Below, one piece after another: positions 35,194-42,141 of a stretch of 64,000 bases of DNA (its first letter is position 1; every line of letters starts with the position of its first letter). The stretch comes from Myxococcales bacterium (GTDB taxonomy: Bacteria; Myxococcota_A; UBA9042; JABWCM01; BTVJ01). The position numbers and the translations under genes were made by a program. The notes under the pieces were generated by a model. The model did no database searches, had not been told where the DNA came from, and saw only the letters and a list, made by a program, of their open reading frames with translations. Location: contig BTVJ01000004.1 in the NCBI GenBank assembly GCA_045863395.1, forward strand, positions 32,001 through 96,000, written 5' to 3'.

Positions 35194-36825
35194 ATGAGGT
35201 GGTTGGTGGCTCTGTTCCTGGTAGGGTGCGCAGGTTCCGTGGAGAAGGGGGCGCCCGCGCTGCCTGCGCTTGGGGCCAAGCAGGACGGCCCGGCGGTCCC
35301 CGTGCTCGGCACGCTGGCCTGGGGAGAGGCGATGAGCGGGACCCTCACGCCGGGGGAGTTCCAGGGGTGGCTCCTCCCGGCGCTCGCTGGCGACCTCGTG
35401 ACGGTGGAGGTGACACAGAAGGGGTCGAGCGCCGGCCTGGACGCGACCCTGTTCGTCTATGCTCCGGACGGCGGGGGCTTCGCGTCGGACCCCGCCGCCA
35501 TGGACGACGACTCCGGGTGGGGTCGCCTGCCCCGCCTGACCCACACCTTCAGCGTCGGAGGCTCGTACCTCGTGGTGGTCGGCGCCTTCGACAAAGTGGG
35601 CAAAGGCGCCTACCGCCTGCTCGCCACCTGCACCGGCGTCTGCGAGGTGGCGAGCTGCGACCCCCGCCTTCTCGCCGGCATGAAGGCGTGTGTCCAGGAT
35701 TGGCGCTACGGCGCGGATCCGGACGCGCAGCGCCCACCGACCACCGGGGAGCTGGTGGAGGGCTGCACCGACGCCGAGCCAGTGGCCCCGGTGCGTGACG
35801 CCATCTGCGCCGAGGACGACTCGCCCTTCTGCGCTCTGGACTACGAGCAGTTCGTCTACCAGGCCATCCCGCCGTGCCGCGCGCCCCTCGAGACGTGGGT
35901 GGAGGAGACGGCCTGCGCCCTCGGCTATACGTGGCAGCCCATCGCCCAGGGGGCGGCCTGGGGCATCCTGGAGCTCGGCCGCACCACGGTGACGACGGCC
36001 GAGGGGCTCAGCGATGTCGAGGCGGAGCGCATCGTGGCGGCGCTCCACGCCTCCGCCCACACGGACGTCACGACCGCCGCGGAGGCCATTCTGCGCACCG
36101 ACGACAAGGCCCTGCTGCGCCTCTCGCTCTGGGACGTCACCAACGGCAGAGCCTATGACGCCTGGACCTTCCACGCAGGTGACAACCTCTTCGGGGCCGT
36201 CTTCGGCGATGGGAGTGGGGGTCCGGTGGCCCACATCAACGACGGAGACATCGTGGAGTGTCAGGTGACACCGGGGCCGGTGCTTCACCCCTGCGCGACG
36301 GACGGAGACTGCGGCGGCCTCACCTGCATCGGCGCCAGCCCGCAGACCTTCGACGGCCGCTGTGTCCCGCCGGGAGCGGCAGGCGCAGAGACGTGCTCGG
36401 CGGAGGCGCAGTGTGCGGCGGGCTTCGTGTGCAACGGTGGAGAGGCGGGCACCTGCGCCCCCGCCTGGACCCGCGCCACCTTCCGCGACGTGGCGTGGGC
36501 GCCCATCCCGGAGGGCGTCGGCGCCCCGCTGGAGCGAACAATCCAGGCGTCGGGCCTGCTCCCGGAGGCGACGGACGCCCGCCTGCGGATCACCGTGGCC
36601 CACCCGGCGCCATCACAGCTCCGCGTGCTGCTCTTGACGCCGGCGGGAGGCGAGCACGTGGTCTACGAGGGCACGCAGCAGGGCCCGGACCTGACGCTGG
36701 ACCTGGCGGTCCCCGTTGACGGCGGCACCCCGGCCAACGGGACGTGGACCCTCCGCGTCACCGACACGCTCAAGGGGAAGGCGGGGACGCTCACCGAGTG
36801 GTCGCTGGGGTTGGGGAGCCGCTGA
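35194..36825 (+). CDS. Lipoprotein with a PPC-like domain, Cys-rich modules and a C-terminal proprotein-convertase P domain
   Basis: Lipobox LVGC; LDATLFVYAPDG..DDDSG..GSYLVVV; ITVAHPAPSQLRVLLLTPAG..ANGTWTLRVTD..GTLTEWSL. Confidence 0.78.
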   Translation: MRWLVALFLVGCAGSVEKGAPALPALGAKQDGPAVPVLGTLAWGEAMSGTLTPGEFQGWLLPALAGDLVTVEVTQKGSSAGLDATLFVYAPDGGGFASDPAAMDDDSGWGRLPRLTHTFSVGGSYLVVVGAFDKVGKGAYRLLATCTGVCEVASCDPRLLAGMKACVQDWRYGADPDAQRPPTTGELVEGCTDAEPVAPVRDAICAEDDSPFCALDYEQFVYQAIPPCRAPLETWVEETACALGYTWQPIAQGAAWGILELGRTTVTTAEGLSDVEAERIVAALHASAHTDVTTAAEAILRTDDKALLRLSLWDVTNGRAYDAWTFHAGDNLFGAVFGDGSGGPVAHINDGDIVECQVTPGPVLHPCATDGDCGGLTCIGASPQTFDGRCVPPGAAGAETCSAEAQCAAGFVCNGGEAGTCAPAWTRATFRDVAWAPIPEGVGAPLERTIQASGLLPEATDARLRITVAHPAPSQLRVLLLTPAGGEHVVYEGTQQGPDLTLDLAVPVDGGTPANGTWTLRVTDTLKGKAGTLTEWSLGLGSR

Positions 36826-37090
36826 GGCGCACCGCGGCCCTGTCGCGACGGGCGTCGTGAACGGTGTACACCGCACTGCGCCAGATCCCCTGAGACCCGC
36901 TCGGTCAGAACGCCTCCACTCGCCAGCACAGGTACGCGAGGAGCGCATCGCTCACGAAGCCGATCACTTCATGCCAGAGGAAAGTCTTGCTCGGATTGTG
37001 CTTGCGGTCTCGCACCCCCGTGAGCTACCCTCGTCCAGTCCGTGACCCGGAGAGGTCGACTCGGCATACTCTCGAGGGGAGTTTGTCGCG

Positions 37091-37339
37091 ATGGGAATTC
37101 GACGATGCAGCTTCTGCAAGAAGCCCCGCGGCGCAGAGCTCGCCAAGATCTGCACATCCTGCGCCCAGGGCCGCACAGCAGACTCCTGGTGTGACTTCTG
37201 TAACAAGACGACCAACGGCGCGCCGGCCTGGATATGCTCCACGTGTGCCAAGGGACGCACCGGCGACAACTGGTGCGACTTCTGCAACAAGACCACGAAT
37301 ACGGTCGTTGCTCGTATTTGCGCTCGCTGCGCCGCATGA
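37091..37339 (+). CDS. 82-aa triple zinc-finger microprotein (6 x CxxC, 28-aa internal repeat)
   Basis: CSFC-11-CTSC-9-CDFC-11-CSTC-9-CDFC-11-CARC; GAGGGG RBS; repeat copies differ mostly at synonymous sites. Confidence 0.8.
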   Translation: MGIRRCSFCKKPRGAELAKICTSCAQGRTADSWCDFCNKTTNGAPAWICSTCAKGRTGDNWCDFCNKTTNTVVARICARCAA

Positions 37340-37365
37340 CCGCGAGTCGAGAGAGGAGATGATCG

Positions 37366-40299
37366 ATGTTGTCTGTCGACCAGCTTCGGCGACTGGAGTC
37401 CACCCGGGCCCTCCTGCCCAATTCGCTCGCAACCAGCCTGACCGGCGCACTCCTCGAGCGGGATCCTCGCTCGAAACTACGTGAAATTCTGCGGTTCTGC
37501 GAGTCATTGGCACGCTACCTGTGCGACCTGCTCAACTCGGCGTACACGATGCGCAAGGACACGGACCCGTCCATCGAAAGGGAGCTGCGCGCCAAGTCGA
37601 AGAAGGAGAAGACAGCGGGTCTGTCCTTCGGGGACCTCGTTGCATCACTGGCGGTGTTCAGAGGACGAATGACGGAGGAGATGGCGCTTCCTCAGATCAA
37701 GGTGATCCTCTCGGAACAGCTTCCTGGCGAGTGTCTCACGGCCATCAGGACCATCGAGATCATCATGGAAGCGACGGGCGATTTCGAGGTCCCCCCACAC
37801 AAGGTAGCCGCCTATGTCAAGAGACGGCTGGCCGAACGTGGGGCCGTCGGAAAGAAGAACATCACGGACCTCCTGTGGATGCTCGCAAGAGTCCGCAATG
37901 CCTTTCACCACCCGTCGGACGCGGGGGCCCGCGCTGCGGACTCGAGAGTCGACGCTCGTCAGGAGGCCGAGGCGCCCTCACCGGCGACCGGGAAACAGTG
38001 GTGGTCGGAGGCCATTGAGTTCTACGTCGCGCTAGTGGAGACGCTGCACCCGGCACTCGTGGATCTGCTCCTCTGGTCGCCCCTCGTCGCGCTGGTAGAG
38101 CAGTACGAGCTCGTCGAGACCTTGTCGCCATCCGTGTCGGTGGACGACGGGTTTCTCTCGACCGTAAGACGTAACAGCCCAAGTGCCGAGCTGCTGCTCG
38201 TGCCAAGCCAGATCCGAACGGACTCGCCGTTGGAATCCGGACAGCTCTGCGTCGCTGCTCGGACGGCCGATCCATCTCGACTCGAGCTTTGTGTCCGCGG
38301 ACTTCGGTATCCTGCGAGCCGGCTGGCGCGCACGGAACACCTCGCCATGTATCGCAAGGCATTCGTACGAGCGATCCTGGGCGACGCGGTCGTCGATGCC
38401 GCCGATGAGTCAGCACTGGAGGAGATTCGGGCTCAGGGCGACCTCACAGACGGTGAGGTAGCGGAGTGTCGTTCATCGGTTCTCCAACGCTGGCTCGCAG
38501 CATGTCCGACCTCGGAGCCGATCCAGAGCCTGGGCACAGACATCACACCGAGACCGAGCGACGCTCTGGAGCATTGGCTCTCAAGGGATACACCGGCAAA
38601 GTCCGAGAGTCCGGCAGCCCCTGGTGACGTAGTTGCGCAGGCAGCATCTCTCATGGGCCACGTCTGTGGTCTGGTATTGCGGTCCCTTCAGGACAACGGC
38701 GCCATGGGGCTCGAGGCTCTCGTTCGGAGCACGTCTGTCGAGGCCCTCGCGTTGGCCCGTGCTCTGCAGTGGCTCGTGGACCGTAAGCGGGTGACGAGCG
38801 CAGGCAGCACGCAACAGGGAAATGCGGCACGCACATACCAGCTCTTGGACCAGGCACACATCGACACATTCCGGTCCGTCCTCGTCGAGGTTGGACACGA
38901 GATTGACTCAGGGAAGGTGATCAGCGGCCAGGTCTGGCGTCTCATCAAGTTGACGGACTCACTCCTGAGAGATCTCGGACACACCGAGGATTTCGCCGAG
39001 CGATGGCGAGAGCTGGAGGAGCGCGCACTGTCTCAAACGGATCTGGAGGTTTCTGACACTACCGATGTAGACGAAGAGGCTGATCGCCTGGACCTCATGA
39101 TCGAGGGTACCGACGTCAGCGCAAAGCGCTTGACACATCTGGTGCGGCGGGCTTGGGAGCTCGTGTGCAACGACGACAGGATGGTAAGACAGGTGACATC
39201 CCCAGGCAGCGCCATACCGTTCAAGGTCGGTCGCAGCCGCTATTTCGCTCACAGTGCACCAGAGCACTCCAACGGCACCGCGTTTGCTTTGCCCGTCGAG
39301 TGTCTCTGCGGCGACACGGCGGTCTACTTCGAGTGCAACTGGAGTCGTCGCGAAGGTGTCTTCCACCTCATCGGATTTCTGGGGAGGTGCGGATTCCGCG
39401 CCGAGTCCGCCTCCGTTGGAGAGCAGGTCGTGCAGGTTGAACAGGCCGCGCCGGAGCCAGGCGACGAGTCCACGCGGTCACGGCCCGGCGGTGTGCAGCA
39501 AGCCCTTGGCGACGGCGATGGTCGGGGAGTTGCGATTCTGCTGACGGACGGTGAGGAGCTCGATATTCGCGGCCGCAACGTTCCGCGCTTTCTGGGCTCG
39601 CTTCTGCGCTGGCTCGTGGACAATGATCTGATTCATGAGCAGGTGCATGGTGAGCCACTGCTTCCGTTTCAAAGCGGCAGAGTGCGAAACTTCGTCGCGC
39701 TTGCGCCGTTTCACCAGGACGAGACGCCATTCCAACGCCCGGTGGAGTACCAGGGACTCTACATGGAGGCGTCTCAATCATGGGAATCGGCGCTGGAGTA
39801 CTCGAAGCGCCTGCTCGACAGACTCAGGCTCGACTGTCGTGTCCTGGTGGATGATTCGCGACTGCCGCTCATGGTCCGTGTGCGCGATGGCGCGCCCATC
39901 GAAGGGGAGAACGTTCGCGATTTGTTCGTTGCGGCATGCCAGTATCTGGTCGAGTCCCAGAATGCATCCCGAGTACCCGTTCCACTTGCGAGCGGCACGA
40001 AGCGGTACATCATGTCCGAAACTCCGGTTCATCCAGCCGGCAACGCATTCAGCAGTCCGGTCCAGATTGATCTCAACGGGCGTCTCGTATACTGCGAAGC
40101 CAACGTAAGCAGAGCGAGCGCGCTGTCCTATGTCGTCAAGCTTTTGGAGTCCACTGGCACCATCATCGTCGATGCCCAGGGCCACAATGCGCTACAGGAA
40201 GCACTGGGCGCTGCGTCCTCGGGCGAGGGGCCCGACGTCCATAGCAGTGCATTGGACAGTCTGGGAGACGCAATCAGCGAGGCTGGAGCGACTCTCTGA
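37366..40299 (+). CDS. 977-aa multidomain hypothetical protein: HEPN-like N-terminus, TerB-like and wHTH-like segments, three C-terminal SeqA-C-like repeats (candidate defence effector)
   Basis: GAGGAG RBS; RNAFHH (RxxxxH) at 37894-37911; three ~100-aa repeats at about 39088-40160. The ORF is clear; the domain calls are inference. Confidence 0.72.
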   Translation: MLSVDQLRRLESTRALLPNSLATSLTGALLERDPRSKLREILRFCESLARYLCDLLNSAYTMRKDTDPSIERELRAKSKKEKTAGLSFGDLVASLAVFRGRMTEEMALPQIKVILSEQLPGECLTAIRTIEIIMEATGDFEVPPHKVAAYVKRRLAERGAVGKKNITDLLWMLARVRNAFHHPSDAGARAADSRVDARQEAEAPSPATGKQWWSEAIEFYVALVETLHPALVDLLLWSPLVALVEQYELVETLSPSVSVDDGFLSTVRRNSPSAELLLVPSQIRTDSPLESGQLCVAARTADPSRLELCVRGLRYPASRLARTEHLAMYRKAFVRAILGDAVVDAADESALEEIRAQGDLTDGEVAECRSSVLQRWLAACPTSEPIQSLGTDITPRPSDALEHWLSRDTPAKSESPAAPGDVVAQAASLMGHVCGLVLRSLQDNGAMGLEALVRSTSVEALALARALQWLVDRKRVTSAGSTQQGNAARTYQLLDQAHIDTFRSVLVEVGHEIDSGKVISGQVWRLIKLTDSLLRDLGHTEDFAERWRELEERALSQTDLEVSDTTDVDEEADRLDLMIEGTDVSAKRLTHLVRRAWELVCNDDRMVRQVTSPGSAIPFKVGRSRYFAHSAPEHSNGTAFALPVECLCGDTAVYFECNWSRREGVFHLIGFLGRCGFRAESASVGEQVVQVEQAAPEPGDESTRSRPGGVQQALGDGDGRGVAILLTDGEELDIRGRNVPRFLGSLLRWLVDNDLIHEQVHGEPLLPFQSGRVRNFVALAPFHQDETPFQRPVEYQGLYMEASQSWESALEYSKRLLDRLRLDCRVLVDDSRLPLMVRVRDGAPIEGENVRDLFVAACQYLVESQNASRVPVPLASGTKRYIMSETPVHPAGNAFSSPVQIDLNGRLVYCEANVSRASALSYVVKLLESTGTIIVDAQGHNALQEALGAASSGEGPDVHSSALDSLGDAISEAGATL

Positions 40300-40458
40300 G
40301 GCGAGCGGGCTCGGACCCGTGCGAGGGTCTCTGTGTTGTGACGTCTCGTCAGGCGAGGAGCGCGCAATCGGTGGCGTAGACGCGCTGTGGCGTTGGGTGC
40401 CCCCTGACCCGCCGCGGTCCTCGTGGGCCGGGATCACGACGCCTTGGCATGCCACGGA

Positions 40459-42141
40459 TCAGAGCGTCTCCTCCCGCCCGAACAGCGGCGCCAGGAGCAC
40501 CACGCCGGCGCAGCCGACCACGTTGTACCAGAGGAAGCCGACGTCGCTCAGGAAGAACATCGCCAGCACGAGGGCCTCGGAGAGGACCGCCGCCCAGAAG
40601 ACGCCGGCGGCGCGGACCCGCTTGAGGAAGAAGGCGGCGAGGAAGATGCCGAGGATGGTGCCGTAGAAGAGGGAGCCGAGGATGTTGACGGCCTGGATGA
40701 GGTTGTCGATGAGCGAGGCGAAGGTCGCAAACGCGATGGCGAGGAGCCCCCACCCCACGATGAAGACCTTGGAGACGCGCAGCGTGTGGGCCTCGTCGGC
40801 GTCTGGCCGGAAGGAGCGCTTGTAGAAGTCGATGGCGGTGGTGGTGCCCAGCGCCGACAGCTCGCTCGCCGTCGACGACATGGCCGCCGACAGGATCACC
40901 GCGACCAGCAGCCCCACCACCCCGATGGGGAGGAACTTCATCACGAAGCTCAGGAAGACGTAGTCCGTGTCCTTGGTCTCGGCCCCGGGCACCGCGCGGG
41001 CGATGATCGCCCTCGCCTTGGCGCGCAGCTCCACGTCCTGCGCGGAGAGCTCCCGCATGGACGCCTTCGCCGTCGCCGCCGCCTCCTCGTCACCCGCCCT
41101 GCGCGCGCCGAGCCAGGTGTCCACCGCCGCGCGCTTGACCTGGAAGATGCGCGCGTGGGCGGCCTCCACCTCCGCCAGCTCCGGCCCATGAGAGGTCGCC
41201 GCCGCCTGGGCCCGCGCGGCCTCGTTGAAGAACACCGGCGGCTCCACGAACTGGTAGAACACGAACACCATGACCCCGATGAACAGGATGAGGAACTGCA
41301 TGGGGATCTTGAGCAGCCCGTTGAACAGGAGCCCGAGGCGCGCCTGGGCGATGGAGCGCCCGGACAGGTAGCGCTGCACCTGGCTCTGGTCGGTCCCGAA
41401 GTAGGCGAGCGCGAGGAAGAGCCCCCCTGTGATCCCCGACCAGAAGGTGTAGCGGCTGTCGAGGTCCAGGCTGAAGTCGATGGCGTTCATGCGGCCGAAG
41501 GCCCCCGCCACCTGGACCGCCTCGCCGAAGGAGACGTGCTCCGGCAGGTGGAGCACCACCATGACCAGCGCCGCCACCATGCCGCCGAGCATCACCACCA
41601 TCTGGTGCTTCTGGGTCTGGCTCACCGCCTTGGTGCCGCCGGTCACCGTGTAGACGACGACCACGAGGCCGATGGCCACGTTGGTCACGTCCAGGGGCCA
41701 GCCGAGGATGGTGGAGAGGATGATCGCCGGCGCGTAGATGGTGATTCCCGCGGCCAGGCCTCGTTGAATCAGGAAGAGAAACGCAGCGAGCTGGCGGGTG
41801 CGCTTGTCGAAGCGGCTCTCCAGGAACTCGTAGGCCGTGTAGACCCGCAGCCGGAAGTAGCGGGGCACCACCACCGCGGACAGGATCACCATGGCGATGG
41901 GCAGCCCGAGGTAGAACTGGACGAAGCGCATGCCGTCGTCGTAGCCCTGCCCCGGGGTGGACAGGAAGGTGATGGCGCTCGCCTGGGTCGCCATGACGCT
42001 CAGGCCGACGGTGTACCAGGGCAGCTCGTTGTCGCCGCGCAGGTAGCCCTGCACCGTCGCCACACGGCGCGTCTTCCAGGCCCCGTAGGCGACGATGCCG
42101 AAGACCGTGCCCAGCATCACCGCCCAGTCGAGGGCGCTCAC
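40459..42141 (-). CDS. Sodium:solute symporter (SSS family)
   Basis: GLSVMATQASAITFLSTPGQ, TAYEFLESRF, YFGTDQSQVQRYL and GLLVAVILSAAMSS. Confidence 0.92.
   Translation of the reverse strand: MSALDWAVMLGTVFGIVAYGAWKTRRVATVQGYLRGDNELPWYTVGLSVMATQASAITFLSTPGQGYDDGMRFVQFYLGLPIAMVILSAVVVPRYFRLRVYTAYEFLESRFDKRTRQLAAFLFLIQRGLAAGITIYAPAIILSTILGWPLDVTNVAIGLVVVVYTVTGGTKAVSQTQKHQMVVMLGGMVAALVMVVLHLPEHVSFGEAVQVAGAFGRMNAIDFSLDLDSRYTFWSGITGGLFLALAYFGTDQSQVQRYLSGRSIAQARLGLLFNGLLKIPMQFLILFIGVMVFVFYQFVEPPVFFNEAARAQAAATSHGPELAEVEAAHARIFQVKRAAVDTWLGARRAGDEEAAATAKASMRELSAQDVELRAKARAIIARAVPGAETKDTDYVFLSFVMKFLPIGVVGLLVAVILSAAMSSTASELSALGTTTAIDFYKRSFRPDADEAHTLRVSKVFIVGWGLLAIAFATFASLIDNLIQAVNILGSLFYGTILGIFLAAFFLKRVRAAGVFWAAVLSEALVLAMFFLSDVGFLWYNVVGCAGVVLLAPLFGREETL

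Follow-up and report, generated by a model that had tools for sequence, protein, structure and literature searches.

A threefold-repeated 12-cysteine protein from a Myxococcales bacterium as a predicted circular permutant of the PHF5A/Rds3 zinc fold

If a bacterial gene encodes three similar copies of a paired CxxC unit with a spacing like that of the spliceosomal protein PHF5A/Rds3, then it may be a relative of that protein, an unrelated analogue, or simply a string of small zinc fingers. Such a gene lies in the window, which is the whole 64,000-nucleotide stretch of Myxococcales DNA analysed here, and its product is called P0001 below. To our knowledge, bacteria have no spliceosome. The question is both what P0001 is and what it could do in its present setting. 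The explanation favoured here, with a probability of about 0.68, is that the gene encodes a cytoplasmic three-zinc triquetra protein homologous to PHF5A, which would most likely act as an optional accessory of conflict cassettes.

The cysteines of P0001 are at positions 6, 9, 21, 24, 34, 37, 49, 52, 62, 65, 77, and 80, giving the arrangement CxxC-11-CxxC-9-CxxC-11-CxxC-9-CxxC-11-CxxC with a period of 28 residues (Table 1). A preliminary description of this DNA read the gene as CxxC-11-CxxC-9 repeated three times, and this spacing holds except that the third repeat stops two residues past the last cysteine and has no 9-residue linker. It also compared the 19 codons from 37160 with those from 37244. 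Recounting gave exactly its figures, with 8 codons differing synonymously and 3 non-synonymously, the other 8 being identical; this is the best-matching part of the inter-repeat comparison. Between codons 21–52 and 49–80 there are 11 synonymous and 11 non-synonymous differences (pN 0.21, pS 0.91), and identity at an 84-nt offset is 36/55, 37/55, and 23/55 for codon positions 1, 2, and 3. The proposal that selection acts on this frame is also borne out by 10 homologous genes, against which pN is 0.24–0.32 and pS is 0.54–0.73. Synonymous divergence between the repeats is at least as great as that between genomes, which indicates that the gene is under purifying selection and that its repeats are old. 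The gene is single-copy in the source genome, and a search for a sigma-70-type promoter in front of it found none. Contigs from four RNA runs were considered as proof of its transcription and rejected, because the whole 6.2-kb stretch is covered alike.

Table 1. Features of the island and of the P0001 gene in the window.
Feature	Position	Strand	Remarks
Left boundary of the island	36905..36982	-	Degenerate 78-nt in-frame copy of the symporter gene 3' end, including the stop codon
Low-GC two-gene island	36983..40458	.	GC 0.623, against 0.716 and 0.713 in the flanks
Putative ribosome-binding site	37074..37081	+	Purine-rich, 9 nt 5' of the ATG; role inferred
P0001 gene	37091..37339	+	82 aa, 12 Cys, threefold repeat, family I (ABABAB), no signal peptide
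Repeat 1, codons 6-33	37106..37189	+	Knuckle A1 (C6,C9), strand, helix-type B1 (C21,C24), linker
Repeat 2, codons 34-61	37190..37273	+	A2 (C34,C37), strand, B2 (C49,C52), linker
Repeat 3, codons 62-82	37274..37336	+	A3 (C62,C65), strand, B3 (C77,C80)
977-aa partner gene	37366..40299	+	26 nt downstream of the P0001 gene
R177-N178-x3-H182 motif of the 977-aa protein	37894..37911	+	Invariant in 4/4 homologs
Right boundary of the island	40459..40536	-	3' end of the sodium:solute symporter gene
Sodium:solute symporter gene	40459-42141	-	Pfam SSF E 2.4e-41

P0001 belongs to a small family (family I), of which 28 sequences were analysed. Exactly 12 domain cysteines are present in 27 of them, and all 12 are invariant in a 21-row alignment. 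The spacing 12-9-11-9-11 is found in 23 of the 28, and the 11-9-11-9-11 of P0001 amounts to a one-residue deletion relative to it. Twenty-six of the proteins begin 3–5 residues ahead of the first cysteine and carry no leader; the exceptions are P0036, with a probable over-long start call, and P0017 (110 aa), which has a signal-peptide-like leader and separately homogenised repeats. Net charge ranges from +3 to +11. The spread is patchy, with family I present in 2/107 genomes of the class (locus L006 belongs to genome G053 of this class) and in 4/401 of the phylum, to which loci L004 and L005 also belong (genomes G119 and G303, DNA of 68–70% GC). No viral carriers of family I were found in IMG/VR or among BFVD structures (best E 2.3), and neither NCBIfam nor PADLOC has a match for P0001.

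The structural comparison proposed in the preliminary description came out in favour of PHF5A/Rds3, which are the top matches of the P0001 model, albeit weak ones. The AlphaFold2 model, built on the 21-row alignment, has a pLDDT of 83.9 and a pTM of 0.65. In Foldseek searches with this model, PHF5A takes ranks 1–4 and 7 (E 1.2–5.3, TM 0.47–0.50) and every non-PHF5A chain has a TM of at most 0.27, the direct match itself being weak (E 1.2, probability 0.21). Similarly, only two of 48,161 PDB chains reach Z ≥ 2 in VIA-align, and both matches are weak: Rds3 (Z 3.0, rmsd 4.0, 66 aligned, model residues 9–82 on 11–78) and PHF5A (Z 2.3). When the comparison with PHF5A/Rds3 was repeated, Z was 2.2–2.9; over both comparisons, 65–67 residues were aligned at Z 2.2–3.0 and rmsd 3.6–4.0, and the model is collinear with PHF5A/Rds3 across model residues 8–82. 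AlphaFold2 training data included PHF5A/Rds3. The matches of P0001 itself to PHF5A are a lead, not proof.

In the other comparisons suggested at the outset, with the PHF5 family and the ClpX zinc domain, P0001 fell short. On the PHF5 profile (PF03660) it scores 16.8 bits, under the gathering cut-off of 26.7, and unrelated CxxC proteins of other genomes score 18.6–24.1 bits, above P0001. Fourteen of 21 family I members match PF03660 at E ≤ 0.1, the best at 6.6e-5. A likeness to the ClpX zinc finger was not sustained, since the match extends over 12 residues (E 0.039), scores 14.3 bits on the ClpX C4 profile (under the Pfam cut-off of 27), and is absent from the fold searches. C2H2 arrays rank above PHF5A in sequence searches of the PDB; PRDM9 and other such arrays were rejected as relatives, being period-28 artefacts in which the second cysteine pair is absent. 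P0001 has six intact CxxC motifs rather than the five CxxC and two single cysteines of PHF5, and it is not an SF3b subunit, its gene lying on a bacterial contig amid bacterial genes. What it does have of the triquetra is a full set of twelve conserved ligands, carried by knuckle and helix-type CxxC motifs in alternation, together with a sequence link, beyond cysteine spacing, to a second bacterial family.

This second family (family II) is represented by the one protein above the PF03660 cut-off in a scan of 401 genomes, P0040, which has a twin-arginine-like leader and three repeats starting with the helix-type CxxC. P0040 corresponds to an ESM Atlas cluster (87 aa, 111 members) that is the top match of P0001 by features (0.88) and by structure (TM 0.59), with 0.95 for P0041. 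The archaeal label of the Atlas members is Atlas annotation alone, and the phylum is known for two of them. Family II comprises 197 proteins (clusters) out of 221 candidates, with source labels that include Myxococcales, Bacteroidia, Planctomycetia, and Pseudomonadota; its alignment holds 118 of the 120 proteins listed, two 60-aa fragments having been dropped. In the phylum of the window its spread is patchy (5/401 genomes for the family II query). Pfam PHF5 is matched at E ≤ 1e-5 by 97/118 of the aligned proteins, and P0040 (32 bits), P0042 (33.3), and P0106 (28.6) are above the PF03660 cut-off. Most members have signal peptides, either Tat-like or Sec-like (one of the 197 is encoded at locus L026:1222-1584 in genome G043), and a twin-arginine motif is present in 59/118. 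Eleven of 95 regular family II proteins have Gly at the first Cys position of the third helix-type site (e.g. L029–L033), and a GxCC pattern there, which represents a shifted ligand, occurs in 17/118. The family II gene follows an unnamed gene of 424–431 aa at L030, L031, and L033, for which the L030 copy has no Pfam match, and at L030 it is followed by a Sir2-family gene. No defence context was seen for exported family II in the six loci read, no viral carriers were found in IMG/VR, and NCBIfam and PADLOC gave no match for P0040.

The structural match of family II to PHF5A/Rds3 is clear. Its model has a domain pLDDT of about 90, and PHF5A/Rds3 occupy Foldseek ranks 1–17 (E 3.9e-4, probability 1.00, rmsd 2.6 Å over 82) and are again the sole two of 48,161 chains matched in VIA-align (Z 6.9 and 6.1). 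In a profile search, family II hits Rds3 at E 0.002 and the two agree at non-Cys residues as well, but Rds3 is outscored by a C2H2 array. These non-Cys marks of Rds3 are common to family II and not to family I. The hhalign comparison of family I with family II in turn gives 87.5%, with an E of 3.6e-6 and 65 columns aligned. Family II thus bridges P0001 and PHF5A in both sequence and structure. The preliminary description had allowed for a relative or an analogue of the triquetra fold; this bridge and the top rank of PHF5A/Rds3 among the structural matches favour 'relative', with the refinement that P0001 is a circular permutant and a cousin of PHF5A, whose closest prokaryotic form is family II.

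In PMC5458519, PHF5A is described as having five CXXC motifs and two single cysteines, with zinc sites formed by motifs 1+4, 2+5, and 3 plus the two single cysteines. A site made of a knuckle and a helix is the building block of Rds3, and the knuckle of finger 3 in Rds3/PHF5A is interrupted by the termini, according to PMC7614390 (for the latter, see also PMC4506424). The favoured structure for P0001 follows the same plan. A shared unit of ~28 residues would consist of a knuckle A, a strand, a helix-type CxxC B, and a linker, and three such units would close a triangle through their strands, each zinc being held between one repeat, through its knuckle, and a different repeat, through its helix. 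CxxC pairs i and i+3 would thus share a site, which is also the rule in PHF5A. With the motif pairing of PHF5A carried over, the predicted sites are C6,C9+C49,C52; C21,C24+C62,C65; and C34,C37+C77,C80. Judged from the model, it is very probable that P0001 has the PHF5A/Rds3 fold; homology with PHF5A is quite probable, and the predicted zinc pairing and knot are probable. P0001 would most likely be a compact, basic, non-catalytic module that binds nucleic acid or a partner protein; PHF5A in SF3b contacts protein repeats and RNA backbone, as described in PMC5458519.

A possible function is suggested by the setting of the gene. It shares an island of ~3.5 kb with a single other gene, which encodes a 977-aa protein. 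The boundary repeats of the island are direct and identical at 56/78 positions, the best match genome-wide (next best 46/78), and the island appears to be an old insertion at the 3' end of a protein-coding gene. Just upstream of it, at 35194-36825, is a gene whose 543-aa product is probably a lipoprotein and has three kinds of domain (PPC-like, Cys-rich, and proprotein-convertase P). The N-terminal R-N-x3-H (R-x4-H) motif of the 977-aa protein is one that we take to be HEPN-like. A homolog has a weak DUF4145 match (E 0.013), the window's own segment having none, and a weak match of the profile points to a probable winged helix at about 406–470. The C-terminus has three repeats of about 105 aa (hhalign 72–97%, controls < 1%), which have no match in Pfam, PADLOC, or PDB sequences and may resemble SeqA-C/RAMA DNA-binding domains. 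Homologs of the 977-aa protein are present in 2/300 other genomes of the phylum, both of which lack a P0001-type small gene, as well as at loci L005 and L007. The protein is of no known family and is a candidate anti-phage effector.

At 9/11 distinct family I loci (raw count), the gene adjoins a KAP NTPase, a DHH-like/CorA-like fusion, or the 977-aa protein; loci L041–L044 repeat L004 and L005 and were left out as independent tests. The KAP NTPase adjoins the family I gene at L002, L003, L004, and L013, and the start of a KAP-like ORF was seen by eye next to it at L011. The DHH-like/CorA-like fusion is present at L005, L007, and L010 (CorA at E 1e-4 to 9e-6, DHH only at E 0.19), and homologs of the 977-aa protein are in the family I cluster at L005 and L007. 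At L006, a weak Card1-like nuclease is upstream on the opposite strand. The fusion proteins, DHH-like at the N-terminus and CorA-like at the C-terminus, are about 740 aa long (L005:6257-8554, L007:3686-5920, and L034:9742-11955, the last on contig C32 of the source genome, G000). No CRISPR context was seen for them, and the copy on contig C32 is near a ClpB-like gene, by eye, with no small gene beside it. The neighbours match the profiles of KAP-NTPase defence proteins (PifA, QatA) and of CorA-associated systems, but only in the NTPase or CorA part, at 89–109 bits against the QatA cut-off of 600, and PADLOC holds no known defence system with a P0001-type protein.

On this evidence, the P0001 module may be an optional accessory that moves with anti-phage or conflict cassettes and is expressed along with them, in the window with the HEPN-motif protein. 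Family I would most plausibly supply a defence effector with an optional sensor or adaptor. An accessory role in defence is put forward tentatively, at somewhat less than even odds. The alternative that survives best is that fold and homology stand but P0001 has no part in defence, and is instead a zinc store, a stress protein, or a passenger of variable islands. Its partners do vary between loci, with no defence-type partner at L012, they also occur without the small gene (for instance, the DHH-CorA homolog on contig C32), and family II is exported and found beside Sir2-family and unnamed genes. However, the family I start overlaps the stop codon of the KAP NTPase in three loci, the same three partner types recur in differing orders, and the island in the window holds nothing besides the P0001 gene and the HEPN-motif gene. 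A role outside defence is considered fairly unlikely, though it is the main rival to the accessory role.

The families also differ in where the ring of repeats is opened. With A for the knuckle CxxC and B for the helix-type CxxC, and with classes assigned by pattern and checked by eye, family I is ABABAB and 102/118 family II proteins are BABABA. Five of the 118 (P0042, P0128, P0132, P0136, and P0139) have seven CxxC motifs in the order ABABABA, or 3.5 repeats, and three (P0098, P0106, and P0126) have a split knuckle, in which one lone Cys precedes B1 and another follows B3, which is PHF5A's own arrangement; the remaining eight are truncated or irregular. By these patterns, families I and II together show four apparent cuts of one ring of three A+B units. 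The ring would be opened before A in family I, before B in family II, and inside the knuckle in PHF5A and some family II proteins. The 3.5-repeat form may be an intermediate, from which trimming of either end would yield the other forms.

Identity between different repeats at non-Cys core positions is 0.37 in family I and 0.64 in family II, and that between the two families is 0.15–0.22 (shuffled background 0.08, maximum 0.29). In a rough tree of 116 repeat units (24 columns, 20 family II proteins), the families separate on a branch of 2.26 with support of 100/100. This separation and the low cross-family identity suggest that the two families go back to a related unit, which each of them amplified or homogenised on its own. 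The repeats of some single proteins (P0017, P0104, and P0153) cluster together in the tree. Symmetry can thus be re-made, and by itself it gives no direction of descent. It is conceivable that bacteria acquired PHF5A from a eukaryote, either whole or as a single repeat, and that repeat homogenisation restored its symmetry, so that both families are descendants of the spliceosomal protein. This would fit with the patchy spread of both families in the phylum, with the clustering of repeats within single proteins, and with the many carriers labelled Myxococcales. Myxococcales prey on other cells. What speaks against this direction is the bacterial diversity, with a deep split between the two families, four permutations, and source labels as varied as Myxococcales and Pseudomonadota, whereas the spliceosome has one highly conserved, degenerate form; descent from PHF5A is accordingly judged improbable. 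A wider proposal in the opposite direction is that bacteria hold the whole triquetra permutation series and that every family in it grew by amplification of one ~28-residue zinc unit. PHF5A would then have entered SF3b from the bacterial branch with the split knuckle, and the branch of P0001 would serve as a sensor or adaptor in undescribed anti-phage cassettes with an HEPN-motif protein, a KAP NTPase, and a DHH-CorA fusion. Taken as a whole, this proposal is speculative, with odds of about one in three.

The favoured reading of P0001 as a homolog of PHF5A must also be weighed against the same fold having a separate origin, in which triplication of some unrelated CxxC-CxxC unit would have led by convergence to a triquetra-like triangle, with no common ancestry with PHF5A or family II. 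The distance between the units of the two families in the tree (based on 24 columns only), their low non-Cys identity, and the weak direct scores with PHF5A would all be expected in that case. In contrast, the non-Cys likeness of P0001 to family II stands above that of shuffled and natural controls. The family II HMM places the P0001 ORF first of 2,315 genome frames with at least two CxxC, ahead of 2,314 natural decoys (15.9 versus 11.0 bits). Its score was not reached by any of 100 shuffles with the cysteines fixed, and 297 of 300 repeat-preserving shuffles fell below it, with 3 reaching it. When all 28 family I proteins were treated in this way, 15 scored higher than every one of their 100 shuffles; for the weakest protein, 16 shuffles scored as high. 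Additionally, the two families share the order of half-units, a similar period (28 versus 29), and the strand motif, and the triquetra fold is unique in the PDB. Convergence from a separate origin is therefore rather improbable.

It is less probable again that P0001 forms three sequential, independent fingers of the double-zinc-ribbon or B-box kind, with A and B of each repeat binding one zinc. Trim66 B-box gives P0001 its highest Pfam score (25.5 bits), and DZR_2 (21.2 bits) matches 21/21 family I members at E ≤ 0.1; both exceed the PHF5 score of P0001, and one of its five models is poor (pLDDT 63.6). However, both Pfam matches are under the cut-off of 27 for P0001, and among the 48,161 chains all those with a zinc ribbon, B-box, or treble clef stay below Z 2. 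The model has strands (DSSP) only at 16–21, 44–48, and 71–76. Every repeat thus has a single strand segment, broken into two pieces, and this argues for pairing between repeats in a closed triangle; the family II model is clearly a triquetra. Finally, the cysteines are very unlikely to hold iron-sulfur clusters or form disulfides. Three Fe sites of the rubredoxin type could likewise be built from 12 Cys, disulfides are common where the exported family II resides, and one family II member matches a ferredoxin at E 0.81. However, ligand 6 of family II is exchanged among Cys (54), His (40), and Asp (1 of 95), which fits zinc and not disulfides, no ferredoxin or heme motif was seen by eye, P0001 has no signal peptide, and its structural relatives bind zinc.

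PMC5458519 describes PHF5A/Rds3 as a core splicing factor that is universal, forms part of a drug-binding site, and has a fold found nowhere else in the PDB. A 2023 survey of the spliceosome lists it without a prokaryotic homolog (PMC9887622), and PMC5709842 makes no mention of it. No report of prokaryotic PHF5 homologs was found in the open-licence literature, although closed supplements or subscription papers could hold one, and family II is already in databases, as an automatic PF03660 label only. PHF5A was thought to be a eukaryotic invention, and symmetric bacterial relatives make its origin testable. Similarly, natural circular permutants open to test the way in which duplication and the swapping of segments give rise to a zinc fold with a trefoil knot. 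A predicted knot of 82 residues with internal symmetry also offers a simple model for knot folding, and the two-gene cassette points to undescribed defence-type genes.

Among known systems, GATA-like treble clefs, including the ClpX C4 finger (PF06689), are single sequential fingers and thus unlike P0001. Family II resembles P0001 in its three A+B units of 28–29 residues, its strand motif before B, and its basic charge, but it differs from family I in its N-terminal leaders, its own repeat consensus, and its closer agreement with Rds3 in non-Cys residues. PHF5A/Rds3, the SF3b subunit (PF03660; PDB 5SYB, 2K0A, and 5GM6 chain J), has, like P0001, 12 Cys ligands in three sites and alternating knuckle and helix-type CxxC motifs. 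Unlike PHF5A, P0001 has repeats that are still visibly alike and are always joined by 9-residue linkers; it lacks both a terminal stem and a basic C-terminal helix, and it is a rare bacterial protein encoded on an island. Overall, P0001 is strictly outside PF03660, and the most fitting label for it is that of a new circular permutant within the PHF5A/Rds3 fold.
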